Shown here one piece after another: positions 44,643 to 64,000 of a DNA stretch of 64,000 nucleotides. The position numbers and the translations under genes are program-made. Below the pieces are notes generated by a model. The model worked only from the letters and a program-made list of their open reading frames with translations, was not told where the DNA came from and did no database searches. Position 1 is the first letter of the stretch. Every line of letters starts with the position of its first letter. The stretch is from an uncultured Salinicoccus sp. (lineage in GTDB: Bacteria > Bacillota > Bacilli > Staphylococcales > Salinicoccaceae): assembly GCA_947494965.1 (NCBI GenBank), contig CANLWV010000003.1, forward strand, positions 171,252 to 235,251, given 5' to 3'.

Positions 44643-44660
44643 TTATTTATGATAACTTTC
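44643..44660 (-). repeat. SCC integration-site-like 18-mer (ISS1)
   Basis: Reverse complement is GAAAGTTATCATAAATAA. It shares the TAACACG 7-mer 2 nt to its left with ISS3 and ISS4. Confidence 0.5.
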
Positions 44661-44807
44661 GGGTATCGTTTTTCTATGCGAACGTTTAGTAATTTGATTG
44701 AATCTCATTCTTAGTTTTCAATACATAAACAAGAATAATCCCACTAAAGTAATGTACTCTAGCAGGATTAAAAACAACATTCATATTATGATAATCTGGA
44801 AAATAGG

Positions 44808-45240
44808 TTACCAACCAGTGTTGTCCTCAGTCATCCATTTCGATAACTCAACTGTATTTTCTAAACTCTTATATCCATCTTGATCTAGAATAACTTCTTC
44901 ATTTTCAAATAATTTTTCTACTGTAAGATTTTTATCCCAGTAGCCTTTGTTGGAACCAAAGAAGTTCTCAGCGACTCTTCCTGCTGCCACTTCGAAAATT
45001 TTACCATTATATTGATTATCTTTGTGAAATAACCACAAAACAGCAGGTGAAACCCGTTCAGCTCCAATTCGTTCTCCCTGACGCTTCCTTCTTCGTTTTC
45101 CATACTTCCAGACAATGCTGTGAAAGCACCAAACGCCAACATATTTACCGTAATACCACGCTCCAATCCTTTAGCTGCCAATGTTTTACCTAAAACAAGT
45201 ACCGTTGATTTAGAGGCCGCATCATGACTTATCAAAGGTT
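44808..45240 (-). pseudogene. 5'-truncated, frameshifted SDR (MFE-2-type dehydrogenase-like) remnant
   Basis: Two overlapping minus-strand ORFs in different frames join into one SDR C-terminal half (AASKSTVLVLGKTLAAKG...NMLA, then WLFHKDNQYNGKIFEVAAG). The Rossmann half is absent and the catalytic Tyr position reads Asp. Confidence 0.6.
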
Positions 45241-45673
45241 GACTGATGAATGAGTAAGAGGAGAGGTTTATATTATAATTCTAGGTCTCTAGCTTTGTTT
45301 TCTCCTTCAATCAGCCTATCAATAATACCTTCACAGATTTCCTTATGTTCCTATATAATATCTAGACTCTTGAAGGATTGAAAAACGTAAAGGCAGTTAA
45401 ATATCACATTACCTTTCCTTAAATTAATGTTTATGTTAAGTTTTTTACATAACATACTCGTGCTAGAAAATGATGAAATTATCATTTGTGTTATGAGTTG
45501 TGATGCTGATAACTATTACCTATACAATGAAATGACGGGTTATAGTAATAATGAGCAATGCTTTTATAAAACATGGAATAAGACGATCCCTCGGTACTAT
45601 ACGTGATAAACAGCACTCATTCTATAATTTATTAGATCAAATATCAGAATAAGATATATTTTCTTAAATAATT

Positions 45674-45837
45674 TTAGGGGCTGGGACAAAACCATTCCCT
45701 TCAAAAATAAGCCGGACGTTAGCTTTTCTGGGGTATCTGTGTGCCTATAGTCTCACGCAGATGCTATTTCCTAGAAGTCTAACATCCGGCTATCTATTAT
45801 TTTTCTATATCTTCAAGACTTTTGTCCCATCCCCTAA
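45674..45837. repeat. about 164-nt long imperfect hairpin (MITE- or sRNA-like palindromic element)
   Basis: Arms ttaggggctgggacaaaa / ttttgtcccatcccctaa, gccggacgttagcttttctgg / cctagaagtctaacatccggc and atctgtgtg / cacgcagat pair around a loop at about 45745-45755. Confidence 0.6.
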
Positions 45838-45903
45838 TTTTTTGCATGCTTTATCTCACTGTCTCCTAGTTACATATTCACTTTAAGTATTATAGAATTG
45901 TAG

Positions 45904-46281
45904 TTAATAGATATAGTAGAAGAGAAATTATGGCAAGCCGCTGATAAACTCAGAGGAAGAATGGATGCCTCAGAATATAAAAGTGTGGTTCTTGGATTAA
46001 TCTTCTTAAAGTATGTCTCAGATGCATTTGAAGAGAAAAATGCTGAACTGATTCAAGATGAACATATGGCAGAGAATATTTTCTGGGTGCCAAAAGAAGC
46101 ACGCTGGACATATATCAATGAAAACTCTAAGAAACCTGAAATCGTTCAACTGATTTCTAACGGTGTGAAAAAACACAATAAAGCAGCAATCATGGTGACA
46201 CACGATGAACGTATGCTTGAATACTGTGACCGCGTGTTCCAAATGAACGACGGTAAGCTTGAACAAGTGATAGATTATTAA
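45904..46281 (+). pseudogene. chimeric remnant: type I R-M HsdM N-terminal fragment fused to an ABC-ATPase C-terminal fragment
   Basis: LWQAADKLRGRMDASEYKSVVLGLIFLKYVSDAFEE...NIFWVPKEARW is the HsdM N-terminus. After about nt 46140 the frame reads AAIMVTHDERMLEYCDRVFQMNDGKL, an ABC H-loop/C-terminus. An in-frame stop lies at 45901. Confidence 0.65.
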
Positions 46282-46287
46282 AATATT

Positions 46288-46323
46288 AACTCTGCTACAG
46301 ACAAAATGTAGCAGAGTTTTTTT
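46288..46323 (+). terminator. rho-independent terminator
   Basis: aactctgctaca / tgtagcagagtt plus T run. Confidence 0.8.
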
Positions 46324-46447
46324 GTAAATCTATATACATATACGGGGTATATTCATTGAATAAAACGCTATATACGATACAATATATATAAGAAGATTTT
46401 TATTTTTCAGACAGCCTTAAGGAAATCTAAGCGGAAGGATTTTTATC

Positions 46448-48280
46448 ATGTTCAACTACTTATTTACAAACAGGCAGGGACAGTTTCTCGTTGCAGGGAT
46501 TATCTCTATAATTCTCGGATTTGCGTTGATGCCGGTAGAGGGTATCTACAGTACCATTACATTTTACATTGCAATTTTCTTCCTCGGTTTCTATGCATCT
46601 AAAAATGCGGTCATCGAGACAATTAGAGAACGTTCACCAAACGTTGACTTACTGATGATTCTTGCTGCCATTGGTGCAGTCATCATCAATTATGAGTCAG
46701 AAGGTGCACTGTTACTTCTAATCTTTGCGGGTGCTGAAGTGCTTGAGAACTACGCGACGAGTAAATCCACAAAAGCCATTTCTGAACTGATGTCCCACCT
46801 TCCTTCAACAGCAAGTAGAATCGGGGCTGATGGAGAAATTACGGAAGTTCCTACAGAAGAACTGATCCAAGGCGATATCGTCCTTGTTGCTAAAGGGGAA
46901 CAAATCCCAATCGATGGACAGGCAGACCGTCAAGTATCGGTCAACGAAGCAGCGCTGACAGGGGAATCTGTTCCGGTTGTAAAAGAAAAGGAAGAAGAAG
47001 TATTTGCCGGTACGGTAAACGATGGCAACTCGTTTAGATTAACTGTAACGAAAACGAGTGATGATACAATCTTCTCGAATATCGTGCGTATGGTTGAAGA
47101 AGCACAACAAAGACCATCGAAACTATCGAAAACCATCGATCGAATTGAATCCAAATATGTAATCTCTGTTTTAATCGGGGTACCGGTGTTTATCGCTATC
47201 CTTTACTTCTTTAATAATTTAGGATTTGAAGAATCATTCTACCGTGGAATGGTCATGCTGACAGTAGCAAGCCCGTGTGCGCTCGTTGCATCGGCAACAC
47301 TAGCGACACTGAGTGCGATTAGTAACGGTGCGAAAAACGGTATTCTGTTTAAAGGCGGTGCCGCGATGGAGGCACTGAGCACGATGGACATTCTATATAG
47401 TGATAAGACAGGAACACTCACATACGGTGACTTCGTCGTTGAAGAATATGCAGCGGATGAAGATACATTAAAAGAAGTGGTAACGATTGAACAACACTCG
47501 AGTCACCCGATCGCAGAAGCGATTGTGAAGAAGTTTAAAACTTTAGATTTAGATAGTGTCGATCACAGTGAACCAGTAGAAGAAATCGTCGGCAGCGGAA
47601 TGAAGAAAGGCGATATCATCGTCGGTAAACCCGATTCATTTAAAGACTACACAGACCCATCGAACTACAGAGATCAAATCATTGCTGGAAATACGAATAT
47701 CTTTGTCGGAGAGAGTGGACAAATTACTGGATTCTTCTCGCTGGCAGACCAAGTCCGTGATGAAGCAGTACATGCCGTTGAAAACTTCCAAAACTCTGAC
47801 ATTGAAGTCGTACTCTTAACAGGAGATAATGAAACTGTTGCAGAAAAAGTTGCTGGAGAAGTGGGCATTACAGACTACACCGCATCATGTCTCCCTGAGG
47901 ACAAAGTACGCTTTGTAAATGAAAGTCAGAAGAAGAGTAAGATTGTCGGAATGATCGGAGATGGAATCAACGACGCACCCGCACTGGCAAACGCTGATAT
48001 CGGTATTGCAATGGGAAGCGGATCATCCGTTGCGATGGAATCATCAGACGTCGTAATCGTTAAAAACAACTTACAAAAACTATTCTATAGTTTCATGTTA
48101 AGTAATCGACTCAATCGCATTATTTTAGCAAATATTATCTTCTCTATTAGTGTGATTGTTATACTTGTATTATTAAATATATTCGGACTCCTAAATCTAC
48201 CAACAGCAGTGCTCTTCCACGAAGGATCAACGATACTCGTTATCCTAAACGGATTAAGACTGTTAAGAGCGAAAGAATAG
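46448..48280 (+). CDS. heavy-metal P-type ATPase, P1B-4-like (no N-terminal metal-binding domain)
   Basis: TGES (LTGESVPV), DKTGT, GDGINDAP, a TM SPC motif (ASPCALV) and HEGST in the last TM segment. 610 aa with a short N-terminus. Confidence 0.85.
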   Translation: MFNYLFTNRQGQFLVAGIISIILGFALMPVEGIYSTITFYIAIFFLGFYASKNAVIETIRERSPNVDLLMILAAIGAVIINYESEGALLLLIFAGAEVLENYATSKSTKAISELMSHLPSTASRIGADGEITEVPTEELIQGDIVLVAKGEQIPIDGQADRQVSVNEAALTGESVPVVKEKEEEVFAGTVNDGNSFRLTVTKTSDDTIFSNIVRMVEEAQQRPSKLSKTIDRIESKYVISVLIGVPVFIAILYFFNNLGFEESFYRGMVMLTVASPCALVASATLATLSAISNGAKNGILFKGGAAMEALSTMDILYSDKTGTLTYGDFVVEEYAADEDTLKEVVTIEQHSSHPIAEAIVKKFKTLDLDSVDHSEPVEEIVGSGMKKGDIIVGKPDSFKDYTDPSNYRDQIIAGNTNIFVGESGQITGFFSLADQVRDEAVHAVENFQNSDIEVVLLTGDNETVAEKVAGEVGITDYTASCLPEDKVRFVNESQKKSKIVGMIGDGINDAPALANADIGIAMGSGSSVAMESSDVVIVKNNLQKLFYSFMLSNRLNRIILANIIFSISVIVILVLLNIFGLLNLPTAVLFHEGSTILVILNGLRLLRAKE

Positions 48281-48311
48281 TATATTTATCTACTGTAAGA
48301 AGGAATACACC

Positions 48312-48626
48312 TTGTATAAATCAATATTGCTCGCTGCAGACGGTTCGGAAAACAGTCTGAGAGCAGCAGAAGGATCATTAAATTTCATCAATGAAGAAAC
48401 GACGGTGACAATATGTCTTAGACCCGTCCGATGCGAGAGATAATATACTACACAGTATGCCGAGTGGCAGTAATTCACACATTAAAATGACAAACTGGCG
48501 AAAATTATTGAAGTATATGAAATGAACAATATTCCTTACAAGATACAATATGAAAATGGAACGCCGAAAGAAAAAGTAATTAATGTGGCAAATCAAGGAG
48601 AAATTACGGTGTTGATAGTTAAATAA
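48312..48626 (+). pseudogene. universal stress protein (UspA-family) remnant, frame-disrupted and C-terminally truncated
   Basis: TTG-YKSILLAADGSENSLRAAE... stops after 43 codons. A downstream segment in another frame reads LAKIIEVYEMNNIPYKIQYENGTPKEKVINVANQGEITVLIV. Confidence 0.5.
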
Positions 48627-48631
48627 AGAGA

Positions 48632-48745
48632 GAACCACAAGTCAGCAAGCAGTTCCATCGATTGTTTCCGTTTTTCTGGATCATAAGTGTAAGTGACAAT
48701 AATCAATTCATCAGCACCTGTGTCTTTAGCAAATACTTCAAGCTT
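48632..48745 (-). pseudogene. C-terminal fragment of an LLM-class flavin oxidoreductase-like gene
   Basis: Minus-strand frame reads KLEVFAKDTGADELIIVTYTYDPEKRKQSMELLADLWF, with an in-frame stop immediately upstream. It lies tail-to-tail against the usp remnant. Confidence 0.4.
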
Positions 48746-48819
48746 TTAAGGAAATTAAATGAGACATAAAATAAAGGAAGCCATTTCTGGCTTCCTTTTA
48801 ATTTTAATTAAACTTCGCA

Positions 48820-48837
48820 TCACTTATGATAACCCTC
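48820..48837 (-). repeat. SCC integration-site-like 18-mer (ISS2)
   Basis: Reverse complement is GAGGGTTATCATAAGTGA followed by TGCGAAGTTT, close to the canonical SCC direct repeat plus flank as I recall it. Confidence 0.65.
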
Positions 48838-48875
48838 TGTGGTTAACACATGTGCGTATTGTGTCTTAACACGCA

Positions 48876-48893
48876 CTACTTGTGATACGCTTC
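48876..48893 (-). repeat. SCC integration-site-like 18-mer (ISS3)
   Basis: Reverse complement is GAAGCGTATCACAAGTAG followed by TGCGTGTTAAG. It lies 38 bp from ISS2. Confidence 0.7.
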
Positions 48894-48935
48894 AGCGTAT
48901 CGCCTCATGATGCGGTTTTACTCTTATGAGTGTAG

Positions 48936-50153
48936 TTAATTTCTGTAAGTTATAAAATCAAATCTCTCCATATTTGGAGAGCCATCTTCTAAATACATAC
49001 CAGAATTCTTAACGCCAAATGCATTAGCTAGGCTTGTAAGTAATGGGAATAACGCTGATTCAAAATTCATATCTTCTTTAATATATGCAGGAACAGAATG
49101 AACAATATTCCTATTGATTGGCTTATCGGGATATAAGTCAAAACCTAGGGATTGTTTCCCTTTAACATTCAGAAGTGTAGTAAAGACATAGTATGGTTTT
49201 TGGATTTGAACGTCTTTCATAACGTTTGATAGTGTATATATTTTGCTTGCTAATAACTTTTCGAATTCATACCAATCATATATATAATCTTTGCCATCAA
49301 CATCGTCAGTACGATTCATAAGTCGAACTTCAGTTATTTCAAGACTGCCATTATGAAATAATTGGGTATAGGAACTTGGTGCGTTACTAAATGACTCATA
49401 AAATATCATAAGACCATCCATATTATATACTGCATTGCCCCTGCGGTACCCGCCTCCCATTCCAGTTGGACTAAAAACATCTAACTTCTGATTCTGTTCT
49501 GCTTTTCTTAAATTCACATAATAATTCAATTTTGTACTCACTTCAGGAATAATGTGTATAACTAACACTGAATCATTATCCAAATCCTCAAATATTTCAT
49601 CGCCTAAAATCATGCTCAATCTTTCATTCTTAAAACTAATTATTTTATTTTCTGTTATATTCTTATCCTCGAATGCATTACGTAAGTCATCTAATAACAT
49701 CGGATTCGTCATATTACCATACCGTATAAAGAGCTCATCTTTACTCCCATTATTAATTGCATGTGGTTTATTTAAACTCTTTGGTACATCTATTTTAATA
49801 AGATTTACATTTTCTATCTGCTCAATGTAGCAATCAATTCCATAGATAACCGGTTTGATTTTACTACTTATATATTGTCTAAAAGATTGCTCCCAACTTT
49901 CAAAACTCTTTTGATCTATCCCTACATCTACTAAGGTTGAAGGGTCATGATTTTCATCTTCGGCAACACCCAAGATAACACTTCCTCCATTTGCATTAGC
50001 GAAAGAACTAATAACTTGTCCTAATTTTCTTTTTTTATTATCTTCAAGATTTTTGAATTGCCCATTATTAAATACATACTGTTTATATTCTAACTTCTGT
50101 CCCTCAGGTAATTTAAAATCCCATATTTCTTGTAATGTAACCATTATATCCAC
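48936..50153 (-). CDS. AlbA_2 (Schlafen-like) domain protein with uncharacterised C-terminal domain
   Basis: N-terminus fits the AlbA_2 pattern: KLEYKQ...VISSFANANGGSVILGVAED...NLIKIDVPKSLNKPH...LFIRYGN. I do not recognise the roughly 250-aa C-terminal half. Confidence 0.6.
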   Translation of the reverse strand: MDIMVTLQEIWDFKLPEGQKLEYKQYVFNNGQFKNLEDNKKRKLGQVISSFANANGGSVILGVAEDENHDPSTLVDVGIDQKSFESWEQSFRQYISSKIKPVIYGIDCYIEQIENVNLIKIDVPKSLNKPHAINNGSKDELFIRYGNMTNPMLLDDLRNAFEDKNITENKIISFKNERLSMILGDEIFEDLDNDSVLVIHIIPEVSTKLNYYVNLRKAEQNQKLDVFSPTGMGGGYRRGNAVYNMDGLMIFYESFSNAPSSYTQLFHNGSLEITEVRLMNRTDDVDGKDYIYDWYEFEKLLASKIYTLSNVMKDVQIQKPYYVFTTLLNVKGKQSLGFDLYPDKPINRNIVHSVPAYIKEDMNFESALFPLLTSLANAFGVKNSGMYLEDGSPNMERFDFITYRN

Positions 50154-50306
50154 CTCGTTGGCTATTTTTACTTTTTCAACAGTAAAGTTCAGATAAAATT
50201 TTATTTACTATATACGGGAATTCCAATGATTCTAGTGACGGGGATCAACGTATGTTTTCAATTAAGATTATTACATTATATAAATATATTTCATTGATAT
50301 TCACTT

Positions 50307-51722
50307 CTATGTTAATATCAGTTTTTCATCTATATTCTTTGCCTTTAAAAATTCAGGGTTTTTTAATAATACATTTATAGTTTCTTTTAGGTATTTTTCT
50401 GCCAATTCAACTACTAACCATCTTCTCCCTTTTGAATCTGTTCTATATCTCTTTTTTTCTAAATCAATTTGTTTATTTCCATGAACTACTGCTGAACGGT
50501 AAGTATAGATAGCTTTCATATTTTTAAAAATATCTAGTTTACTTTCTTCTAGAGAGGATTTTTGCAATAAGAATGCACACCTCAAAGCTAACTTGTGTGT
50601 CAGTTCTGATTTCTCATCATCACTTAATAAGGATTCTAAACCAATTACTATATCAATAATTCTATCTCCTTCATTATGTCTATATAGACTATTCTCTAAT
50701 CTAGAAAAAGCTAATTGAATCTTCTTATCCTCACTATAAAATACTTGAATTAGTTTCTCTTTGACTTTATGAAGTTGATTTAAATTTACTTCTGGATACG
50801 ACCCTTTAGTCCAGTAATAATCATTAAATTGAAGAGGATACACTCCCTTAACGCTTCCTTTTAAATCTAGTAGATTTGCATTATACTTTTCTGCCCACCC
50901 TAAGGGTTGAGAAATTATTTGAGCATATCCTGTCAATATATCATTGATTCTCAAAACATTAAAAAATGAATCAATTAAATTTAGTGGATAACTTTCTATT
51001 GAATTAAAAGGATGTTCTGACCAATAATTATAATTATCTACCGCGAAACCTTGAATTTTTAAAGCATGTGTCGCTGACATAATTACAGCATCTGGAATAC
51101 TTTCAGAATAAGAGGTAATATTGGCCCTAGATTGTTGAAATATATCTGACATTTCAACTATAGACATCTGCTCATTTAATTCATAATTTTTTACCTCAAA
51201 CTTAGTAAATAGAATAGGGACATAGATGTTTATATCTAATTTTTCTAAACAAATTCTACTTTCCATTGGTTTATACAATTTTAGAAATTGGTCTCTTGTA
51301 AGATTATTTTCTTCCCCATATTCTAGTAAACTTTTTTCAATTAGGTCATGCATATTAAGTAAAACACTGATTTCCAAAACTTCTAGTGGATCTTCACCAG
51401 GTGGTTGATATACGTTCAAATATCTTTCGGATTTCGTTAAAAGAAATTCCAATTTTTCATATTCTTTATATTTAGTTACATCAATTTTATCTTCATCGTA
51501 ATTTTTGTTTTTCATTAAGTATTTGCCATAATCAATTGGTTTATCCGGTCCAAGCATAGATTTAGAAATTGAAGGGAATCCATTATCTCTATAACTTAAT
51601 ACTGGATAATTCATATAACCTTTTAATAATATTGATGATTCTTTAGAATGTTTTTCTAGGATTTCTTGAACAGCTCTATTAACAATCTCAAATGATAAGT
51701 CAAATATAAGTTTCTTATTCAA
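50307..51722 (-). CDS. large protein with C-terminal HEPN-like (Rx4H) domain
   Basis: 471 aa. C-terminal helical region IVIGLESLL...KLALRCAFLL...MKAIYTYRSAVVHG contains R409-x4-H414 (nt 50481-50498), resembling Apea/Abi-type HEPN RNase motifs. The N-terminal 340 aa are unrecognised. Confidence 0.5.
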   Translation of the reverse strand: MNKKLIFDLSFEIVNRAVQEILEKHSKESSILLKGYMNYPVLSYRDNGFPSISKSMLGPDKPIDYGKYLMKNKNYDEDKIDVTKYKEYEKLEFLLTKSERYLNVYQPPGEDPLEVLEISVLLNMHDLIEKSLLEYGEENNLTRDQFLKLYKPMESRICLEKLDINIYVPILFTKFEVKNYELNEQMSIVEMSDIFQQSRANITSYSESIPDAVIMSATHALKIQGFAVDNYNYWSEHPFNSIESYPLNLIDSFFNVLRINDILTGYAQIISQPLGWAEKYNANLLDLKGSVKGVYPLQFNDYYWTKGSYPEVNLNQLHKVKEKLIQVFYSEDKKIQLAFSRLENSLYRHNEGDRIIDIVIGLESLLSDDEKSELTHKLALRCAFLLQKSSLEESKLDIFKNMKAIYTYRSAVVHGNKQIDLEKKRYRTDSKGRRWLVVELAEKYLKETINVLLKNPEFLKAKNIDEKLILT

Positions 51723-52253
51723 AATTTTCCTCCTATTTTAAAATTCAATATTGAAATTTTATTTTATATTTTAAATTCTTGAGTATAAGCCTTAAAGTTT
51801 TATAGATGATATTACATAACATCTTTTCATATTCATTGAAATTATTAAATTACTTTTTAAATTTTATGTATCTAACTTTGCTTTCACCATCTTCTCCATC
51901 TCATCATGAGTCCTATATTAGTTTGTATTTTCTGATAATTGAATGTATATTATAAACTACTTATTAAGCACATGGAATTATAGTGATTTTTGGAATAAAA
52001 TTGATGAGGTTGAAAACATTAGAATCTTCCGTCACTAAACCGTATAAATATGTTAAATTTTAATCATTATTACAATTCTTTCATTTAAATTTTTTTCAAT
52101 GAGTATTTAAATGAATAAAATATTTCAAATCATTTAGAATCTTGTATTACATTATTTTTAGAACATAAAATGTAATTTAAGTCTAACTGTTTCTAATGAT
52201 ATAATATCATCAGAAACTAAATAAAAGATGGAAAATAAGTAAAAGGTGATTAT

Positions 52254-53546
52254 ATGGAAAATAATGAAGTGGAATATAAACAGGAAATTAATAATGATGA
52301 AGATTTTAAAGCAGAAATCACAGCTTTTTTGAATACCGATATTGGTGGGACAATTATTCTTGGGGTTGATGATGATGGCAATTCGGTACAGTTTGAATCA
52401 GAGTCGGATAAGACAGCAATTTTTAAAGAATGGGAAGAGAAGCTCGCAAACTGGGTTAGTGACTCTTTCGAACCTGAGGTAAGGCATTTAATTGATATAG
52501 AAAGAAATTTTTTTAATATAACAGTGAGTATACAAGGTGGGGACAATAAGCCTTACAGATTTAAAAATAAAAGAAAAAATAGTTATGATCATATTTACAT
52601 TAGGTCTGGAAGTACTAAGCGTAGAGCTAGTACTGATGAAATTAATCGAATGATTAAAAAACATGACTCTAATACATTCGATAGTTCAGTATCGAAGTTT
52701 CAAAATTTAAATTTTGATTACGTAAAAGGGATTTTCCGTGATTTAGAAAGATCGTTCGATGAATTAAGCTTAAATCTCAAAAAAACCCAAAATCAAAAAT
52801 ATAATTATGCTGCGTATCTTCTTAGTGAAGAAAATGAGAATGTTATCAAATTAGCCGTATTTGATGGCATAGATGTCGATTCTTTTAGAGATAAAAAAGA
52901 ATTTTATGGCTCGTTACCTAAACAAATAGACTATCTACTTGAGACTATTGATATCCATAATAATAAACAAGTTACAATTACTAAGTCCTCACAACGAGTA
53001 GAGCTCACTTCATATCCTGAAATTGCTTTACGAGAATCTATTATCAATGCTTTTGTCCATCGTGATTATACTCTAAGTTCAGACATAAAAGTTGAGATTT
53101 ATGATGACAGAATGACTATTTCTTCTCCGGGTTCAATACCTGATGGTTTAACCGTTGATGATATTAAAGAAGGTTCTAACCCTAAAAGAAATCCGGTTTT
53201 GATTCATGCTCTAGATAAAATGCAATATATCGAAAATTATGGCTCTGGTATTAGAAGGATTTTTTCTAGTTATAAAGGATTTAAAGAACCTAAAATCATA
53301 GCCACAGAAAACCAATTTAAGATAGTTTTATTCAACAGGAATTTCGTAGAAGAAATTGATAATCATTCTGATTCTATAGTTCAATATTTAAATATGAATG
53401 GACCAAGCTCACGGTTTGAAATTCAAGAAAACTTACATTTGCAAAAAAGTTATACTTTAGATTTATTAAAAAAATTACGTGATGACAATATAATTAATAT
53501 TGAAGGCTCAGGTCGATCTACAAAATATCGATTGAAGGAAAAATAA
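52254..53546 (+). CDS. COG2865-type AlbA_2 + HATPase_c_4 + C-terminal wHTH protein
   Basis: N-terminus EVEYKQ...ITAFLNTDIGGTIILGVDDDG...NKPY...IYIRSGSTKRRAS. C-terminal half RESIINAFVHRDYTLSSDIKVEIYDDRMTISSPGSIPDG...KRNPVLIHALDKMQYIENYGSGIRRI. Confidence 0.7.
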   Translation: MENNEVEYKQEINNDEDFKAEITAFLNTDIGGTIILGVDDDGNSVQFESESDKTAIFKEWEEKLANWVSDSFEPEVRHLIDIERNFFNITVSIQGGDNKPYRFKNKRKNSYDHIYIRSGSTKRRASTDEINRMIKKHDSNTFDSSVSKFQNLNFDYVKGIFRDLERSFDELSLNLKKTQNQKYNYAAYLLSEENENVIKLAVFDGIDVDSFRDKKEFYGSLPKQIDYLLETIDIHNNKQVTITKSSQRVELTSYPEIALRESIINAFVHRDYTLSSDIKVEIYDDRMTISSPGSIPDGLTVDDIKEGSNPKRNPVLIHALDKMQYIENYGSGIRRIFSSYKGFKEPKIIATENQFKIVLFNRNFVEEIDNHSDSIVQYLNMNGPSSRFEIQENLHLQKSYTLDLLKKLRDDNIINIEGSGRSTKYRLKEK

Positions 53547-56245: not shown

Positions 56246-57802
56246 ATGAAGATGATGGACGTCTCATATGAAAATTCAAATCCCCTAAAACTGATTTGCG
56301 AGTTCGTCAACAAAAATAGCAATATATATATATTAGAAGAATGGATTAAGGACTCAGAAAGAATAAATGTCTGTTTTTCTGATACTAATGCTGCGTTAGC
56401 TGACTCACTCTACTTCAAAGTGAGTGATATACCTCACATTTTAAAATTAGATACAAATCCAGAATCGATTGGCAAAGATGAAAAAACAGAAAGTATTCAA
56501 TTTTTTTGTAACAGGTATATAAACCTCCTCAAAGAATATATGACAAATGAACTAATCAATGAAAAGAGATACTCTAATCGAATGGATAAATCTCGACTCC
56601 TCATGGCGATAGGCCGGTTTCGTGAATATATAATGGAGGAGGTAGATATACACGGACAAAAGCTATATGAGACTCTTCGAGATGATGATGATGACTCCAT
56701 TCACAAAGAGGTTGAACTTCTCAATATGGAATATTCATTATCGGATCAGAACGTCCAGATAGAGGAAGAAGCGCTATTCCGATTAGTATGCGCACCATAC
56801 ATTCGCAACATTGAAGAAGAGCAAGATAACGATAGAGATAAAACTAAAACGCATAAAAATAATCAAGAACCAATTGAAAACTCCGATATGCTAAGGTCTC
56901 TCACCATCCCGAAGATGGAAGCTACAGAAGATACGTCAATTTACGAGTTAGATTGTAAAAATGGACAAATAAAATCTGAGAATTACCTCGATGCATCCGG
57001 CCTCAATGGATATATAAAGAAATTATTGGAAATTCACTTAAAACACCATATTGATAGGCTTGGTAAAAATGGAAAAATACCTAAAAGAAAGATTTACAGT
57101 GAATATGGTGTTACACCCAGCTTATTAGGTAGCACAAATAAGACTTCAGATGAAGTCAGACAGTATGATGAAGACATCAAGCATATAGAAAATGAGTTGG
57201 ATATTGCCCAAGTCATAATGATTTCTTTTCTGATGTACCTCAGATACAAAGGTCGTCACGAAATCGAAGAATCAAGTAAATTCAGTAAAACCACAAAGCT
57301 ACATCAAGTCATCAATTTTCCAAATTCTGATATTACTGTCCCATCACATTTCATTGAAGAGTTACAAGAAGAAATTAAAGCGTACGCACAAGAAACTAAA
57401 ATATCTACTGATGAGCACGATAAAAGCGATTCAAAATTAGTTAAGTTGATAGAGTCTTTTCTCCTATCGCGGTTTGGTCTCCCATCTTTAAATGACTACA
57501 ACAATTTTTCACGACTAATTGATTTTATCCAGTACAATGTCAAAGGTTTACTAATTGATGAGTCAGATCACATATCATTACTAGGCATTGATTCATTAAT
57601 CTGCAATATTACTTCAGCTTATAACACATGGTTGGAGACCTTACATTCTAATGATACCTCTATCCATTACGAAACACTTTACAATGATGATATCGAGAAA
57701 GTTCATTCATCTTTAAACATTTCTCAGGAGAACGTTGAACCTCTCTTCGATACATCTTCACAAGATTCATTTATAAAACAGAGGTTTCGTGCTTTGCTAT
57801 AA
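56246..57802 (+). CDS. large hypothetical protein upstream of the ccr gene complex
   Basis: 518-aa ORF (the true start may be the ATG at 56252). Its position, size and direction match the conserved large ORF seen upstream of cch in SCC elements, but this is positional inference only. Confidence 0.5.
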   Translation: MKMMDVSYENSNPLKLICEFVNKNSNIYILEEWIKDSERINVCFSDTNAALADSLYFKVSDIPHILKLDTNPESIGKDEKTESIQFFCNRYINLLKEYMTNELINEKRYSNRMDKSRLLMAIGRFREYIMEEVDIHGQKLYETLRDDDDDSIHKEVELLNMEYSLSDQNVQIEEEALFRLVCAPYIRNIEEEQDNDRDKTKTHKNNQEPIENSDMLRSLTIPKMEATEDTSIYELDCKNGQIKSENYLDASGLNGYIKKLLEIHLKHHIDRLGKNGKIPKRKIYSEYGVTPSLLGSTNKTSDEVRQYDEDIKHIENELDIAQVIMISFLMYLRYKGRHEIEESSKFSKTTKLHQVINFPNSDITVPSHFIEELQEEIKAYAQETKISTDEHDKSDSKLVKLIESFLLSRFGLPSLNDYNNFSRLIDFIQYNVKGLLIDESDHISLLGIDSLICNITSAYNTWLETLHSNDTSIHYETLYNDDIEKVHSSLNISQENVEPLFDTSSQDSFIKQRFRALL

Positions 57803-57808
57803 AATTTT

Positions 57809-57842
57809 CCCCTACCCTGGACTCCAGGGTAGGGGATTTTTT
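57809..57842 (+). terminator. rho-independent terminator
   Basis: cccctaccctgg / ccagggtagggg plus TTTTTT. Confidence 0.85.
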
Positions 57843-57932
57843 GCATTTTCAAAATTATAGACTATATACATAGCAAAGCAAGGACATGGTTCATGTTCTT
57901 AATACAGTTGCTATTAGGAAGGAGGCACCCAC

Positions 57933-58181
57933 ATGTGGAAACATACAAAAACACCTTTGACTCCAGAGCAACAAAGAGTTTACCCGATCATGATTGCACT
58001 GGCATACCGGTGGAGGGGCAGAACCTACACTACTGCTGATTTGTTGGATAAGATACCAAACCAACTAGGAAGATATGAGAAAAGTCGGCTTGGGCGAAGG
58101 TTCGCAAGATATGCAACTAAACACCCTCAATCATTCCAAATTATTAGGAGCAACGGGAACCACAGGTACTACACTAAGTAG
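57933..58181 (+). CDS. small basic wHTH-like protein (LP1413/DUF1413-like position)
   Basis: 82 aa with a strong GGAAGGAGG RBS. It lies upstream of cch, where SCC elements encode the LP1413 ssDNA-binding partner. The assignment is positional. Confidence 0.4.
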   Translation: MWKHTKTPLTPEQQRVYPIMIALAYRWRGRTYTTADLLDKIPNQLGRYEKSRLGRRFARYATKHPQSFQIIRSNGNHRYYTK

Positions 58182-58319
58182 TTCTATATGCTCCAGGTTT
58201 AGCGTTATATGTTCATACATTCGGTACCTTGAAAACTGAATACAGCATTTCAATAAGAGCGTTTCTCCTTGCCTATCAAGTCAGGGAGAGATGCTTCAAC
58301 TTCAAAGGAGAAGATTATT

Positions 58320-58481
58320 ATGAAAATAAATGTAATATTATATATAAATCCCAGTCAGAGCAAACAGAGGGACAATAAAGTTATAATCTATAGCCCAGAA
58401 GCTACTGTAATGGCCAGTAACCTGGTGGTTCAATCAGAAATCGTTTCCAAAGTTCTCGCATTTAAGGACGGTTGTAACTAA
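58320..58481 (+). CDS. 53-aa ORF abutting the cch start
   Basis: AAGGAG RBS 9 nt upstream of the ATG at 58320. Its TAA stop is immediately followed by the cch ATG (58482). Confidence 0.3.
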   Translation: MKINVILYINPSQSKQRDNKVIIYSPEATVMASNLVVQSEIVSKVLAFKDGCN

Positions 58482-60278
58482 ATGGAGCTCAAGAAAAATG
58501 GTTGGTATCACTATGATTCTAAAGCAAAGAAGGAAGTTTACGTTGCACCGCCCATTGATGTAACTGAGAGATACAAGGATTTGGAGAGCAATGAAATCCT
58601 CATTACTATTGAAGATGATCAGGGCGCCAAATACCACGGTACGATGGAGGTATTGGGGTCCAGGAACATCGAGGATCTTCTTAAATATGGTTTTCCCATA
58701 ACCCCTGCCAACAAAAACCTCCTCTGTGGTGCATTGGTTGAAAGAGTGAATAAGCTGCCGTTCAAAATAATCTACACGAATGTGGGCCTTACTAAGCACA
58801 ATAACAATTATCAATTCCAAGGGCACACGCTATTAAGCAGTGAAGGGCTTGAAGGGGTGTTGAAGTCCGACTCTCCTTATGATCTACAACCTTCCGGTAA
58901 TATAGATACATGGTTACAGATGTATACAGATCATGTTACAGGCAATACACGCTTGGAGTTGATTTTGGCCCTTGGTGTATCTGGGATTGTTATCACTTAT
59001 TTGAAAAAGGTTTGTGGTGTCGATCTTCATAATCCTATTGTTCATTTATATGGGGACTCCAGTACAGGTAAAACGACCGCAGCGCAATTGGCTCTTTCCG
59101 TCGGAGGCAATCCTAAGAAGGAAAGGGGATTGTTCAAGACCTGGAATAGTACGGCCAACGGTTTGGTTAGTATGCTGTCTGGCAATTATGGAATCCCTCT
59201 CCTATTTGACGAAATTTCAACCATCAGTATAAGAAGCTTGACGACTTTAATCTACACGTTAGCTGAGGGTCTAGAGCGAGGACGTTCAAATATTAACGGC
59301 CAGCATAAAGAACAGAGGGAATGGTCTACCGTGATGTTATCGACAGGAGAAGTGGGCATTGATGAGTTAGGGGCTGCCAAGCAGAATACGGGCATCGGTG
59401 TCAGATTGCTTCAATTTGAAGAAGTGTTCACTCAAAGTTCTAACCAGTCAGAAAGCATCAAAAGGGTAATAAATAAAAATTACGGGCATGTACTTCCCCT
59501 TATCGCAAAAAAGGTTATCGAATCAAACGAAGAAGATATATCTCATTTCTACAATGAGAGGCAGCATAAGTTCCATGAAGCCTTAAAGGGACAACACAAA
59601 GTAGTGGAAAGGGTGGCAAACCTCTATGCGGCTGTCACACTCGCAGCTTTTATATTCAACGAAACCTTTGGTGAATATAACATTTCCATGGACGAGGCTA
59701 AGATATTTGATTTCCTAGTCGCTCATGAAAAGAAAGTCAGCACTACTCGTGACCTTGGAGAACAAGCCTATGAGAAGCTCATCCAATACCTTGTGACCAA
59801 CCAGAATAAAATTGCCGATGCAAAAAGTATTTACAGTAACTCCACAGGGACAATCGGTTTCTATGACGAAACAAGGAAGGATATATATGCCATAAAGATT
59901 TTAAAAGGGGCATTCGAAGACTTCATAAACCACCATAGCGATTTGCAAGGTAGCAAAAAGGTTGCTAAAGCATTAAAAGAAAAAAATTATTTCATCGTTC
60001 CACTTGGCAGAGATCGAATTGGTCAACAAGAGACCGTCAAACCAGGCCATAGAGAGACATTCTATACTCTACACCTTAAACCAGGTGATCATACGCTTTT
60101 CAATCCCTTGAACGATCCTGAGAAAAAAGATTCTGATCCTGTTGAACAAAGTCCTAAAGCAAAAGAGTCTGGTCCCATCGGACAAAGCCCCGAAGCAAAA
60201 AGGATATTCAAAGGGCTTGTTTCAACATCCAATTCCACTGAGGATTCGGATATCGACGATGAAGACATTGGTATTTAA
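58482..60278 (+). CDS. cch: Cch-type DUF927 replicative helicase
   Basis: 598 aa. Walker A GDSSTGKTT, Walker B LLFDEIS. Located directly upstream of ccrA as in SCC ccr gene complexes. Confidence 0.75.
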   Translation: MELKKNGWYHYDSKAKKEVYVAPPIDVTERYKDLESNEILITIEDDQGAKYHGTMEVLGSRNIEDLLKYGFPITPANKNLLCGALVERVNKLPFKIIYTNVGLTKHNNNYQFQGHTLLSSEGLEGVLKSDSPYDLQPSGNIDTWLQMYTDHVTGNTRLELILALGVSGIVITYLKKVCGVDLHNPIVHLYGDSSTGKTTAAQLALSVGGNPKKERGLFKTWNSTANGLVSMLSGNYGIPLLFDEISTISIRSLTTLIYTLAEGLERGRSNINGQHKEQREWSTVMLSTGEVGIDELGAAKQNTGIGVRLLQFEEVFTQSSNQSESIKRVINKNYGHVLPLIAKKVIESNEEDISHFYNERQHKFHEALKGQHKVVERVANLYAAVTLAAFIFNETFGEYNISMDEAKIFDFLVAHEKKVSTTRDLGEQAYEKLIQYLVTNQNKIADAKSIYSNSTGTIGFYDETRKDIYAIKILKGAFEDFINHHSDLQGSKKVAKALKEKNYFIVPLGRDRIGQQETVKPGHRETFYTLHLKPGDHTLFNPLNDPEKKDSDPVEQSPKAKESGPIGQSPEAKRIFKGLVSTSNSTEDSDIDDEDIGI

Positions 60279-60294
60279 AAAAGGAGGAAGCTGA

Positions 60295-60384
60295 ATGAAA
60301 AGCAAAGAGATGCAGTCATTCATCACTTCGCTCGTCAATATTCTCGAGGCAGAAGTGAAAGTAGAAGATGAGAATTTTAAATAG
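60295..60384 (+). CDS. 29-aa ORF between cch and ccrA
   Basis: AAAAGGAGGAA RBS 5 nt upstream. Encodes MKSKEMQSFITSLVNILEAEVKVEDENFK. It falls below the ORF-track length cutoff. Confidence 0.3.
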   Translation: MKSKEMQSFITSLVNILEAEVKVEDENFK

Positions 60385-60435
60385 ATTGAGCTATAGGGGA
60401 GAAGCTGTAAGGGCTTCTCCACTTCTATATAAAGG

Positions 60436-61839
60436 ATGATGAGAAGCATGAACAAAAAAACCATTGCCTATGCACGACAGTCTCTACAGAAGAGTAATCG
60501 CGAATCTTCGACCAGAGGCCAGATTGAGGCCATCCGTAAATATTGCTGTACGAATAAAATTGAAATAGATGAAGTATGGACGGAGGTCGCATCAGGGAAA
60601 ACCATGAAGCGGGAAAAGATGCAACATCTTATCCACCATATCAAACAGGGGTATGTCGAGACATTAATTGTCTGGCGCTTAGATAGAATCTCACGGACGA
60701 CAAAAGATTTACTGACATTCTTCACACTTTGCACAGATCACAAAGTTAACATCATCAGCATCAACGATGAAACCTTGGGATATGAGAACTCGATGGATAA
60801 GTTCAAAGTTCAGATACTAGCCAGTATGGCTGAACTGCAGCGAAATATTATCAGTGAAAACAAAGTGAACACAAACCGAGTAAAGTTTCAAAGAGATCAT
60901 ATCCCCTTCCATGTGACACCATTTGGTTACCGTTACATCAATAAACAGTATGTCGTTGAGGAAAATGAAGCATATACTGTGCGCGAGGTGTATCGACTAT
61001 ATACTGAAGGTCTCGGTTATAAAAAGATATCTCGCTGTACAGAAGAACGGCCCGACCTTGTCTTTTGTCAGCCTTCTCACATCAGACAAATTCTGCTCAA
61101 CCGAAAGTATTATGGATACTATAAGGGAGCTCATGGGGTAGTGGCCAGTATTATTCCTGCGATTATTTCCCAGGAAATCTATGAAAAAGCGGAACAGCTT
61201 CGTCATTCCAAAGCACAGAATAGAAAGCATACAGTACTTGCTAATCTGCGCAGGAAAATAAAATGCCCCTTATGCAACCACACCATGACTACCTATCATA
61301 ATCGGAACCAAACGAACTCAACACCGGTTTATGCATGCAGTCAAAGATTCCGCAAACAGTATCACGCCTGTTCAATGCGCCCGATACCCATCTCCAAGCT
61401 TGAGTCAGAAGCTCTTTATGTTATCAAGTCATTCTTATCCACCGATGAAATACTCAAAGAAATTCACCAAGAAATAGTTAATCAGCTAAAAGAAAAACAA
61501 GCAAGATCCAAGAGGACTGAAGTTGAGATAGAGCGTCAGAAAGAAGTATTGGTGCATGAATTGGCTGCAGGAAATATCGATATAAAAATCTTCAAGCAGT
61601 CTATTGAAGCTTTGCAGGATACTACTCATGTGGCAGAACCCCATATTGATACAGATGAAGTTACATTACAAAAGATTGCTTCACTGATAGAGCAGAAGAC
61701 AGAAGCAAACGATGCGCTTTGGCAACTCGTGGAAAAAGTAGAAGTGGATGAATCAGGGGCCTTATCCGGGGTTTACTTAAAGGATTTATCCATAAATATA
61801 CTCAATAGAAAGGAAGTAATGAAATATGAATCCATATAA
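60436..61839 (+). CDS. ccrA: cassette chromosome recombinase A (large serine recombinase)
   Basis: IAYARQS catalytic-serine motif, VWRLDRISR, a recombinase domain, a Cys-rich zinc ribbon (CPLCNH...YACS) and a coiled-coil tail. Overlaps ccrB by 14 nt. The true start may be MNKKT at 60448. Confidence 0.85.
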   Translation: MMRSMNKKTIAYARQSLQKSNRESSTRGQIEAIRKYCCTNKIEIDEVWTEVASGKTMKREKMQHLIHHIKQGYVETLIVWRLDRISRTTKDLLTFFTLCTDHKVNIISINDETLGYENSMDKFKVQILASMAELQRNIISENKVNTNRVKFQRDHIPFHVTPFGYRYINKQYVVEENEAYTVREVYRLYTEGLGYKKISRCTEERPDLVFCQPSHIRQILLNRKYYGYYKGAHGVVASIIPAIISQEIYEKAEQLRHSKAQNRKHTVLANLRRKIKCPLCNHTMTTYHNRNQTNSTPVYACSQRFRKQYHACSMRPIPISKLESEALYVIKSFLSTDEILKEIHQEIVNQLKEKQARSKRTEVEIERQKEVLVHELAAGNIDIKIFKQSIEALQDTTHVAEPHIDTDEVTLQKIASLIEQKTEANDALWQLVEKVEVDESGALSGVYLKDLSINILNRKEVMKYESI

Positions 61840-63487
61840 ACAGAATGAAAGAATCAAGGTAGCTCTGTATGCCCGGGTCAGTACTGCGATGCAGGCAAGC
61901 GATGGCTTCTCCATTGATGCCCAAATTGAAACTCTAACACAGCATTGTAAAAAGTTAGGGTATGACATTTATAATATATACATCGATAAAGGGCTTAGTG
62001 GGAGTGATATGAGCAAACGCTCTAGCTTATTAAACATGTTGGAAAATGCCAAACAACAAAAGTTCGACAAAGTATACGTCTGGAAGCTATCAAGGTTGGC
62101 CAGAAACGTCCGGGACTTGATTTCCATGGTAGAAGTGCTACAAGACCATTCTGTTGATTTTCATAGTTATAGTGAGAGCTTCGAAGTAACCACTAGTACT
62201 GGCATGTTCATGATGCAGATGTTGGCTGCAGTCAGTGAGTATGAAAGAAATATCATCATAGATAATGTGAAATTGGGTCAAGCCCAACGTGCAATGAACG
62301 GTTATACCAATGGCAAACTGCCACTCGGTTATAACAAGCCGGATTCCCCTCGAATTCCTATAGAAATCAACCCCTATGAAGCTGAAATCATCAAGCAGAT
62401 ATTTAATATGTATGAAGCAGGTCACGGGTTACGGTCAATAGCTAATTCGCTCAATCAGAAAGGGTATCGTACAAAGAAGGGAAACGCCTTTAGTATAACG
62501 GCAATAAAAACGGTTCTCACAAATCCTATCTACTCTGGCATGGTAAGGTTCAATCAATACTTGGACTACGCGAAATATGGAAGAAAGTTTAAGAACGAAA
62601 ACCCAATACTTGTTGAAGGTAAGCATGAGGCAATAATCTCAAAAGAGCAATGGGAGAATGTCCAAGACAAGTTACAGCAACGTTCTTTTATGCCTAAAGT
62701 AATGGGAGATGGCTCAAATCTTTTAACTGGTATACTCAGGTGTCCACAATGCGGCTCAGCCATGATGGCTGCTAATACCACCAACACGTTAAAAGACGGG
62801 ACCAAGAAAAGGATTCGATATTATTCCTGTCAGCAATTTAGAGCAAAAGGGTCGACTGTATGCAGTGCAAACAGTGTTAGAGCAGATGATATAGAAGGAA
62901 TGATCCAATCTAATATCATACAACTCATCAACCAACCTACTATCTTAAATATGGTGGTAGAGGAAAACAATCAGCGTATTCAAAAAGAGCAGATGGCACT
63001 AAAGCAACAACATCCCCAACTCGAAGCTGACATCATTGAGTTGGGCGAAAAAATTACTCGACTTAAAAATGCTGCAGCAGCCGACGAAGATGTGCATACA
63101 ATGCTGCAGCCAGAGATCGAATCGCTCAGAACCGAGTTGGATTCAAAGAAGATGTTGATACAATCACATCATGCTAAAGTCGAAGATACAACAGAAGAGT
63201 CCAAAACATATAGTGAAGAAGAATTAAAACAGGTACTGGAAAAGCTTAGTCGCTCATTCAGTGCAAAGAATAAAATGCAGATTAAAAAGATGTACCTGAC
63301 AATCATAGATAAGGTTACATTTTCAAAGAAAAAAGGGAATCGAAAGATTGAGGATATTACCATTCATCTGAAAAAAGAAATCGGTACGGTGTTGTTGGAG
63401 AATATGAATACAAGCGGAGCTTCTGAAAAGGAAGCTCCGCTTTCTTTGTTTTCTGAGGGCATCATCATCAAATGCAATGCGCAGTGA
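61826..63487 (+). CDS. ccrB: cassette chromosome recombinase B (large serine recombinase)
   Basis: VALYARVST catalytic motif and VWKLSRLARN. LLTGILRCPQCGSAMMAANTTNTLKDGTKKRIRYYSC...CSANSVRAD closely matches the CcrB zinc-ribbon region as I recall it. Confidence 0.9.
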   Translation: MNPYKQNERIKVALYARVSTAMQASDGFSIDAQIETLTQHCKKLGYDIYNIYIDKGLSGSDMSKRSSLLNMLENAKQQKFDKVYVWKLSRLARNVRDLISMVEVLQDHSVDFHSYSESFEVTTSTGMFMMQMLAAVSEYERNIIIDNVKLGQAQRAMNGYTNGKLPLGYNKPDSPRIPIEINPYEAEIIKQIFNMYEAGHGLRSIANSLNQKGYRTKKGNAFSITAIKTVLTNPIYSGMVRFNQYLDYAKYGRKFKNENPILVEGKHEAIISKEQWENVQDKLQQRSFMPKVMGDGSNLLTGILRCPQCGSAMMAANTTNTLKDGTKKRIRYYSCQQFRAKGSTVCSANSVRADDIEGMIQSNIIQLINQPTILNMVVEENNQRIQKEQMALKQQHPQLEADIIELGEKITRLKNAAAADEDVHTMLQPEIESLRTELDSKKMLIQSHHAKVEDTTEESKTYSEEELKQVLEKLSRSFSAKNKMQIKKMYLTIIDKVTFSKKKGNRKIEDITIHLKKEIGTVLLENMNTSGASEKEAPLSLFSEGIIIKCNAQ

Positions 63488-63547
63488 TGCGATCGGATTT
63501 TCAAATATATATTATTTTCTTGTAAATAATCCAAAGGAGGTGGAGCC

Positions 63548-63838
63548 ATGAATGAACAGTTGTACCAGTATGTCATGAATAAATACCCAGAGATGCAAGA
63601 GCAACAGTGGCAAGCTGAAAGCACTGCACTAGGTGCTGAAGATGTCTTTTCAGAACTCACGTATCAAGAGCAGTTCCAAGGACAAATGTTTGATACGGTG
63701 TTGTATTATCCAACAGATGACCAGAGTGACATTGAGTTGTATCCATTCGAGGTATTCAAGGGGGAGGCGCTAATCGCATTAGGCTATATGAATAAAAACA
63801 ATCAATACATCATATATGTCCAGACGGAAACAAGCTGA
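63548..63838 (+). CDS. small acidic hypothetical protein downstream of ccrB
   Basis: 96 aa with a GGAGGTGG RBS. It occupies the position of the small conserved DUF ORFs that follow ccrB in SCC elements. Confidence 0.45.
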   Translation: MNEQLYQYVMNKYPEMQEQQWQAESTALGAEDVFSELTYQEQFQGQMFDTVLYYPTDDQSDIELYPFEVFKGEALIALGYMNKNNQYIIYVQTETS

Positions 63839-64000
63839 AACAACACATAAAGAAGAAATCCACCAGGTCCTTTGCATTATCAAAGGCCAAGGAAAAATAA
63901 GATATGCAAAAGGTTTAAATAATTAAATTTAACTGTTTGAACAGGCCCCAAATATAAAATATCACAGCTCGGAAACTCGGAAATATTAATGTATATACTA

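Follow-up and report, generated by a model that had tools for sequence, protein, structure and literature searches.

Is the right-hand part of a Salinicoccus chromosome fragment a stack of staphylococcal cassette chromosome (SCC) elements, and where would such elements have integrated? The question is raised by a stretch of 64,000 nucleotides from an uncultured Salinicoccus sp. (GenBank assembly GCA_947494965.1, contig CANLWV010000003.1, positions 171,252 to 235,251 of the forward strand), referred to below as the window. SCC elements carry methicillin resistance in staphylococci, and their large serine recombinases are CcrA and CcrB, encoded by the cassette chromosome recombinase (ccr) genes. 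To our knowledge, little has been mapped of where SCC originated or how far it extends beyond Staphylococcus, Mammaliicoccus and Macrococcus. An initial annotation of the window had read the region as stacked cassettes with four integration-site repeats and a ccrAB complex. Our analysis indicates that it is very probably a composite SCC island in a Salinicoccus chromosome, which arose by repeated CcrAB-mediated site-specific integration at the 3′ end of rlmH. It is a stack of SCC-type mobile cassettes, without a resistance gene and with a very divergent CcrA/CcrB pair. Outward from rlmH, the order is the ccr-bearing SCC (64000 down to 54017), site 4, cassette II, site 3, a 38-bp mini-unit, site 2, cassette III, site 1 and probably a decayed cassette reaching to about 40.25 kb.

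All four 18-mers that had been proposed as integration sites are present on the minus strand, in the same orientation:

44643-44660, minus strand: site 1, GAAAGTTATCATAAATAA, reading ESYHK-stop; its left half-site resembles an SCC terminal arm.
48820-48837, minus strand: site 2, GAGGGTTATCATAAGTGA, with a right arm, TGATGCGAAG, like that of staphylococci.
48876-48893, minus strand: site 3, GAAGCGTATCACAAGTAG, reading EAYHK-stop.
53999-54016, minus strand: site 4, GGAAACTATCACAAGTAG; degenerate, as the GA of the proposed crossover is replaced by GG and the left arm is mutated.

Their agreement with the SCC integration-site consensus had been put at 15, 16, 17 and 13 of 18 positions, and we counted 3, 2 and 1 mismatches at sites 1–3 by scanning and 5 at site 4 by direct comparison, which bears these figures out. 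The heptamer TAACAC(G/A), claimed to lie 2 nt from three of the sites, was verified at sites 1, 3 and 4. An independent repeat search recovered a 21-nt repeat family at 44634-44654 (81%), 48867-48887 (the reference copy) and 53990-54010 (95%). When up to 3 mismatches to the loose 18-mer consensus were allowed, 3 matches were obtained versus 1.45 expected, and 15 of 100 shuffled sequences reached this number, which alone is not significant. The exact 12-mer core TAYCAYAARTRR occurs 4 times in the window versus 0.56 expected, a count that was reached by none of 100 shuffles. These four matches are found on one strand only and span 9.4 kb. Flanking direct repeats with a TATCAYAA core are thus present in four copies on the same strand, and the rlmH-proximal copy would be located beyond the window.

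Read in frame, all four sites encode (E/G)(S/G/A/N)-Y-H-K-stop and thereby copy the C-terminal end of RlmH, a protein that terminates with NESYHK-stop in S. luteus and S. cyprini. When 120 homologues of RlmH, from Salinicoccus and Jeotgalicoccus and their relatives, were compared, variation was confined to the last five residues, E(A/S/N/T)YH(K/R). A mechanism can be proposed, each step of which is inferred from what is known of staphylococcal SCC. Recombination by CcrA and CcrB would join the attSCC of a circular cassette to the site at the 3′ end of rlmH. As the crossover would occur upstream of the last codons, the incoming cassette would bring a new RlmH C-terminus and stop codon, and the earlier one would be displaced outward. 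Whichever cassette adjoins rlmH would complete the gene, and ccr-less cassettes would be mobilised in trans. A new C-terminus with each insertion would explain both the in-frame YHK-stop at all sites and the variable tail of RlmH.

For a detailed characterization of the sites, half-sites were tabulated around the GA located 6 nt upstream of the core. In staphylococcal att sites this GA is the proposed crossover point; of the four half-sites, one consists of rlmH coding sequence, and the others are degenerate inverted repeats that stem from the SCC (bioRxiv 10.64898/2026.03.31.715619). The half-sites of the window fit this architecture, since the arm of site 3 inverts the arm of the rlmH junction and the rlmH-coding half stands apart. 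This terminal arm is the left half-site of site 3:

48894-48919, minus strand: SCC terminal arm, AAAACCGCATCATGAGGCGATACGCT; inverted copy of the rlmH-junction arm.

At the junction with rlmH in S. roseus, the sequence AGCGTATCATCGTTGATGAGGTTTTT matches the reverse complement of the site 3 left half, AGCGTATCGCCTCATGATGCGGTTTT; the right half of this junction reads AGCGTATCATCGTTGATG(A/C)GGTTTT in S. roseus, S. sesuvii and S. jeotgali. The site 3 left arm is conserved in four further loci (L092, L105, L106 and L112). Degenerate terminal inverted repeats, the SCC-derived half-sites, are accordingly found at the cassette ends. Sites 1, 3 and 4 have a second arm type in common, ending (T/A)(G/A)(C/T)GTGTTA, and the rlmH-coding half-site (CATTCCTGATGATC...) is unlike every other half-site. 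The GA is retained at sites 1, 2 and 3 and reads GG at site 4, whose left arm is GATAAAG; the homologous arm of locus L088 reads GATGCG. Judged from these changes, site 4 may be impaired. Two groups of candidates were rejected. Locus L095 was dropped as an empty attB on account of SCC-like genes downstream, and for the same reason TGCGTGTTA could not be called as the native arm. AT-rich metagenome variants (e.g. TATCATAAATAATATGTGTTA in L090 and L094), which have neither rlmH nor SCC arms, were taken as chance occurrences.

Sites 2 and 3 had been regarded as the ends of two ordinary cassettes. This part of the earlier reading did not hold: by comparison with other contigs, they are the two ends of a conserved mini-unit of 54–56 bp, whose spacer is:

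48838-48875, minus strand: mini-unit spacer, 38 bp, with the internal inverted repeat TGCGTGTT/AATACGCA.

The internal inverted repeat is due to the fact that two SCC-type half-sites sit back to back. The 38-bp spacer between two copies of the site recurs, nearly invariant, in at least 13 metagenome contigs, where the mini-unit is placed at cassette ends and directly after rlmH. It occurs alone after rlmH in L087, L104, L109 and L111. Tandem arrays of three or four sites at 50–54 bp spacing were seen in L103, L104, L110 and L111, and in L104 and L111 the array begins at the rlmH stop codon itself. The spacers of these arrays are of two types, TGCGTGTTAAGACACAATACGCACATGTGGTAACCA and TGCGGTTTTCC.CA.ATTAT.TA.G.TAATTT. 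In our reading, the mini-unit moves along with SCC elements and is either a putative mini-cassette devoid of cargo or a flanking site that has been captured. At the end of contig L105 (1-49), a perfect 34-nt palindrome contains two facing site cores, TACCATAAATAGAACAT/ATGTTCTATTTATGGTA, which might be an assembly artefact.

Rightwards of site 4, the window contains the distal part of a ccr-bearing SCC with an intact ccr complex:

54017-64000, plus strand: distal part of the ccr-bearing SCC, continuing past the right edge of the window.
58482-60278, plus strand: cch, cassette chromosome helicase; DUF927 and HTH_56 domains, best NCBIfam match SCCmet_Cch1.
60436-61839, plus strand: ccrA; Resolvase, Recombinase and Zn_ribbon_recom domains, best NCBIfam match SCCmet_CcrA.
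61826-63487, plus strand: ccrB; Resolvase, Recombinase and Zn_ribbon_recom domains, best NCBIfam match SCCmet_CcrB.
63548-63838, plus strand: SAUGI-like uracil-DNA-glycosylase inhibitor homologue; PF06106, 34.3 bits, at the same position in S. roseus.

The assignment of ccrA and ccrB is borne out by three recombinase domains in each protein, by the best match of each to its own NCBIfam family and by the position between cch and the SAUGI-like gene. Both are adjacent intact open reading frames (ORFs), as in the ccr gene complex of SCC elements. By comparison with the 463-aa gene of S. roseus, ccrA probably starts at 60448. For CcrA, CcrB and Cch the best NCBIfam family was the correct one, with scores below the equivalog cut-offs: 280.5 versus 700 for CcrA (NF047344), 503.2 versus 900 for CcrB (NF047343) and 367.1 versus 700 for Cch1 (NF047345). 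By these scores the three proteins are divergent homologues outside the curated staphylococcal equivalog sets. They are closely related to those of S. roseus, with amino acid identities of 95.9% for CcrA, 98% for CcrB and 93% for Cch. CcrB is 61–65% identical to the proteins of a small clade (Corticicoccus and metagenomes) and 43–45% identical to staphylococcal CcrB; after the Salinicoccus clade, the next-best matches are all staphylococcal CcrB among the best 120 matches. According to the rule of the International Working Group on SCC elements (IWG-SCC), a nucleotide identity of at least 85% defines membership of a named allotype and 50–84% a new allotype. The threshold has also been quoted as 84.5% (bioRxiv 10.64898/2026.03.31.715619). 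The comparison of allotypes suggested by the initial annotation gave 43–45% amino acid identity to every named staphylococcal CcrB among these 120 matches. As judged from amino acid identity, this excludes membership of any existing staphylococcal ccr allotype. In sequence terms the proteins are genuine homologues of Ccr, belonging to a deep lineage outside the staphylococci.

The identity between S. roseus and the window steps from 68% to 96% exactly at the start of cch (58479). A 345-aa gene adjoins cch upstream in S. roseus (L078, 5619-6656), where the window has a 70-aa ORF only (58269-58481); tblastn with this 345-aa protein gave no match in the window. The 3′ end of cch contains a 36-nt repeat (60125-60200, 2.1 copies) encoding a repeated SP(K/E)AK-rich tail.

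Insertion polymorphism in relatives had been named as a check. We scanned metagenome contigs for the 21-mer and compared the resulting 16 SCC-type loci with the window. For each of the four sites, one comparison or more showed homology to break off there. L088 matches window positions 55707-53990 (93% over 1721 nt) and stops exactly at the end of the 21-mer of site 4, beyond which the mini-unit is found in place of cassette II. L100 matches 48901-45955 at 97.6% and has a different cassette upstream of site 3. L105 matches 44644-45490, 45488-48377 and 48747-48919, which covers cassette III beginning at site 1 and extends to the arm past site 3; the DNA outside is different. Cassette III is 95.6–97.6% identical at the nucleotide level in L100 and L105, which have different neighbours, and cassette II is replaced by other cassettes or the mini-unit in L088, L100 and L105. 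L087, L089 and L103 match the mini-unit only (48894-48840) and end 3 nt before site 2. Overall, the metagenome contigs share single cassettes with the window at 93–98% identity. In S. sesuvii, a 9-kb ccr-less cassette (TIR gene, hsdRSM and an insertion sequence) is located between rlmH and the repeat GAGAGTTACCACAAGTAA, and it encodes a protein 98% identical to that of window 55786-56130. Segments 44661-48819 (between sites 1 and 2) and 48894-53998 (between sites 3 and 4) contain no recombinase domain and are polymorphic in other contigs. As far as sequence comparison goes, the ccr-less cassettes are real modules. The composite structure proposed earlier therefore stands in its main part, a ccr-bearing SCC plus ccr-less modules with homology ending at the sites.

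The prediction that rlmH lies right of the window's edge on the minus strand was confirmed in relatives; the rlmH of this genome itself is beyond the window. S. roseus contig CANNFN010000002.1 (GCA_947503985.1) is 96.25% identical at the nucleotide level to window 58479-64000. Past the SAUGI-like gene it continues with RadC, DUF960 and DUF1643 genes, hsdMSR (type I restriction) and a TIR gene, followed by rlmH on the opposite strand, the 3′ end of which is about 11 kb right of the ccrB stop, and by yycJ, yycI, yycH, walK, walR, purA and dnaB. Metagenome contig SRR3502994_109 has the same layout, with a CcrB 63% identical to that of the window and 14.5 kb between ccrB and rlmH. At the SCC-free rlmH sites of S. 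cyprini and S. luteus, a minus-strand rlmH is located about 6 kb right of a BCCT transporter gene. The BCCT gene of the window (38273-39976) is 98% identical in amino acids (91.5% in nucleotides) to that of S. jeotgali, the nearest species, and 80–84% to those of other Salinicoccus and Jeotgalicoccus. Taken together, rlmH is very likely to be found right of the edge on the minus strand here as well. The BCCT matches identify the host as a Salinicoccus, in line with a core GC content of 0.44.

A 2.1-kb stretch around the BCCT gene (38157-40250) is common to S. jeotgali, where the flanks differ and the 3.3-kb BCCT contig terminates in an apparent insertion-sequence end. An NAD(P)H-binding gene (37195-37836) is situated left of the BCCT gene in the window and directly downstream of rlmH in S. 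cyprini, from which it follows that Salinicoccus species vary in how the genes between BCCT and rlmH are arranged.

The GC content also sets the island apart: 0.442 in 1-37194 versus 0.293–0.377 in the ccr-less cassettes and 0.403 in the ccr complex. The flanking core is GC-richer than the island, as had been claimed, and we count this drop in support of a composite SCC. The statement that mec and bla genes are lacking in the visible part also agreed with our data: no mec, bla or transposase domains were detected among the scanned ORFs, which included the small ORFs only in part. Rfam gave zero matches in 37–64 kb at gathering thresholds. The cargo comprises metal efflux and, probably, phage defence, with no antibiotic resistance gene, and is distributed over the following segments:

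44661-48819: cassette III, ccr-less; metal P-type ATPase and decayed genes.
45961-46281: HsdM N-terminal remnant in cassette III (HsdM_N fragment).
46448-48280, plus strand: heavy-metal P-type ATPase; TIGR01525, 560 bits.
48894-53998: cassette II, ccr-less; GC 0.293.
48936-50153, minus strand, and 52254-53546, plus strand: Schlafen/AlbA_2 proteins (Pfam), one with HATPase_c_4.
50307-51722, minus strand: 471-aa protein without a family match, between both Schlafen/AlbA_2 genes.
53583-53936: tandem array, 4.6 copies of a 77-bp unit (94% matches), between the last cassette II gene and site 4.
54079-54960, plus strand: GIY-YIG protein resembling UzuA (Pfam GIY-YIG; PADLOC PDLC03973, 157.9 bits, full length).
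40251-44642: left segment; globin, two small ORFs, a 403-aa lipoprotein (42134-43345) and a 234-aa ORF.

In cassette III, the single ORF at 45961-46281 joins the HsdM N-terminal fragment to an unrelated C-terminus, and a 257-nt hsdM-like stretch is 72–74% identical to hsdM of four other rlmH-linked cassettes. Positions 45345-45954 (610 nt) are absent from L100, which is elsewhere 98% identical. Cassette II may be a defence module, although PADLOC gave only partial domain-level matches to Schlafen/AlbA_2 in it and no named system. An intergenic stretch of 64 nt in cassette II (51976-52039) is 81–84% identical to sequence close to the inner edge of the cassette that directly follows the site arrays in L104 and L109 and is maybe the remnant of another cassette end. 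Each copy of the 77-bp unit bears a GC-rich palindrome, TCGCCCGGT(CC/GG)ACCGG(G/A)CGA, which was found nowhere else in the window or in 113 loci and has no match in Rfam. The UzuA-like gene forms the outer end of the ccr-bearing SCC, and its copy in L088 is 93% identical in amino acids; Uzume is a single-gene anti-phage system. Between this gene and cch there are five ORFs, three of them unknown (177, 114 and 518 aa) and two of them small.

The left boundary of the island, which had been placed at 44643, is probably further out, at about 40.25 kb. The island is unlikely to end at site 1, because the right half-site there is of the SCC type, the DNA beyond it is low in GC (0.332 in 40251-44642 versus 0.442 in the core), the 403-aa lipoprotein has a homologue (46% identical) inside the SCC of SRR3502994_109, and its genes are absent near BCCT or rlmH: none of the five genes of this segment has a homologue there in 77 related loci. 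The native arms at SCC-free rlmH genes and at the distal repeat of S. sesuvii differ from the right half-site of site 1. A search for a fifth, outer repeat in 37.8–44.6 kb, using the 12-mer at up to 1 mismatch and inspection of intergenic regions by eye, gave none that was convincing. Upstream of the NAD-binding gene, which adjoins rlmH in S. cyprini, the ribosome-binding region alone is retained. Probably, 40251-44642 is an older ccr-less SCC-derived segment without a recognisable outer repeat; that it belongs to the island we infer from the evidence just given.

Several observations weigh against a composite SCC island, or restrict it. As rlmH is outside the window, the anchor is demonstrated in relatives only, and the material compared included neither an excision product nor an empty site of the same species. 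At site 4 the dinucleotide of the proposed crossover is GG and the left arm is mutated, gene remnants occur inside cassette III, and the S. roseus gene that precedes cch is missing from the window. Moreover, no outer repeat was found whose right half-site is native, and CcrA, CcrB and Cch all score under the NCBI equivalog cut-offs. The decay of site 4, the remnants in cassette III and the missing gene suggest that part of the array may no longer be mobile. Taken further, they would be expected of a fossil array, integrated in the past by the SCC mechanism, whose sites and genes have since decayed so that nothing is mobile now. This is possible but, in our view, doubtful. The altered site 4 (GG for GA, and GATAAAG compared with GATGCG in L088), the pseudogenes of cassette III, the loss of the 345-aa gene and the lack of an outer repeat left of site 1 speak for it, whereas the ORFs of ccrA, ccrB and cch are full length and 93–98% identical to those of S. 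roseus, sites 1–3 retain the GA, the core and SCC-type arms, and cassettes recur almost unchanged in unrelated samples, a sign of recent spread. Decay thus qualifies the explanation by repeated integration and does not replace it, and some of the cassettes might still be mobile today. For excision and re-integration by Ccr, indirect evidence comes from identical cassettes having different neighbours, with breakpoints at the sites.

Alternatively, the region might be one large SCC. The internal repeats would then be passengers of imprecise excision and the segments joining regions, moved with the whole or shuffled by homologous recombination at the arms. The attachment of the mini-unit to many cassette ends, as capture of a flanking site would give, the seemingly impaired site 4 and the single ccr pair in view would be in accordance with this idea. 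Cassette III (L100 and L105) and the end carrying the UzuA-like gene (L088) have, however, different neighbours in other contigs, with breakpoints within a few nt of the sites; the modules are flanked by full SCC-type half-sites; and S. sesuvii has a lone ccr-less cassette at rlmH. We consider a single element unlikely. That the 18-mers are chance matches or ordinary chromosomal sequence and the recombinases derive from a prophage, transposon or other element is scarcely credible: the loose consensus is not significant alone and the recombinases fall short of the NCBIfam equivalog cut-offs, but the exact core is enriched (4 versus 0.56) on a single strand, the sites coincide with homology breakpoints, mimic the rlmH 3′ end and are found at real rlmH ends in metagenomes, and Cch and SAUGI fit an SCC in which the next-best matches of CcrB are staphylococcal CcrB.

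The composite SCC island of Salinicoccus resembles the composite islands of Staphylococcus and Mammaliicoccus, in which SCC or SCCmec and ccr-less pseudo-SCC or SCI elements are stacked at rlmH (orfX). Integration at the rlmH 3′ end, which is very likely here and seen in the nearest relatives, would be common to both. Both have same-orientation repeats with a TATCA(T/C)AA core and a GA 6 nt upstream, SCC-derived half-sites with terminal inverted repeats, and the order cch-ccrA-ccrB-SAUGI with ccrAB transcribed towards rlmH and ccr-less cassettes distal. The cargo of metal efflux, restriction-modification and defence is similar as well. The differences are the Salinicoccus host, a CcrB with 43–45% identity, CcrA, CcrB and Cch below the cut-offs, and the lack of a mec complex. 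Furthermore, the site variant here is TATCACAAGTAG with the arm TGCGTGTTA, compared with TATCATAA(A/G)TGATGCGGTTT in staphylococci. The closest relative is the S. roseus element (GCA_947503985.1), which is not annotated as SCC. It shares 96.25% nucleotide identity from cch to SAUGI, 98% identity in CcrB and 95.9% in CcrA, but is 68% identical upstream of cch, has the 345-aa gene that is absent here, and alone shows the part from RadC over TIR to rlmH.

No description of SCC elements in Salinicoccus was found in the searchable literature. A study that looked for homologues of SAUGI mentions in passing those in the ccr complexes of Salinicoccus sp. YB14-2 and Jeotgalicoccus meleagridis; it does not describe cassettes, att sites or anchoring at rlmH (PMC10303552). 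In these genera a SAUGI-like gene is part of the ccr complex, next to radC (PMC10303552), an arrangement that we also found in S. roseus. The ccrAB homologues of the Enterococcus cassette chromosome (ccrABEnt) are described as driving cassette variation outside Staphylococcus (PMC6222049, PMC3068701); their host belongs to a different family. A nucleotide-based survey of complete Staphylococcaceae genomes obtained no SCCmec candidate outside Staphylococcus and Mammaliicoccus, and its authors stated that divergent genes would be missed (PMC12648241).

Our data show a complete SCC system in Salinicoccus, with rlmH as the very likely target, SCC half-sites, Cch-CcrA-CcrB-SAUGI and stacked ccr-less cassettes. 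Its architecture is already known from composite SCC islands and involves no new mechanism; the recombinase lineage is divergent. The arrays of mini-units are a curious and possibly new detail. Speculatively, the mini-unit (site, 36–38-bp spacer, site) might consist of two SCC half-sites only, be carried along with SCC elements and be amplified or contracted by unequal exchange through Ccr, and the ccrAB genes of Salinicoccus and Jeotgalicoccus might represent a deep, overlooked branch that bears on the origin of SCC. If this tentative view of the mini-unit is true, arrays of landing sites would be present at rlmH and stacking would be favoured. Near-identical cassettes are present in several metagenomes. 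Detection pipelines based on S. aureus sequences miss such elements, and the island is a clean out-of-genus case for improving these tools. With recombinases about 44% identical to the staphylococcal ones, it also provides a useful outgroup for the evolution of Ccr and of att sites.

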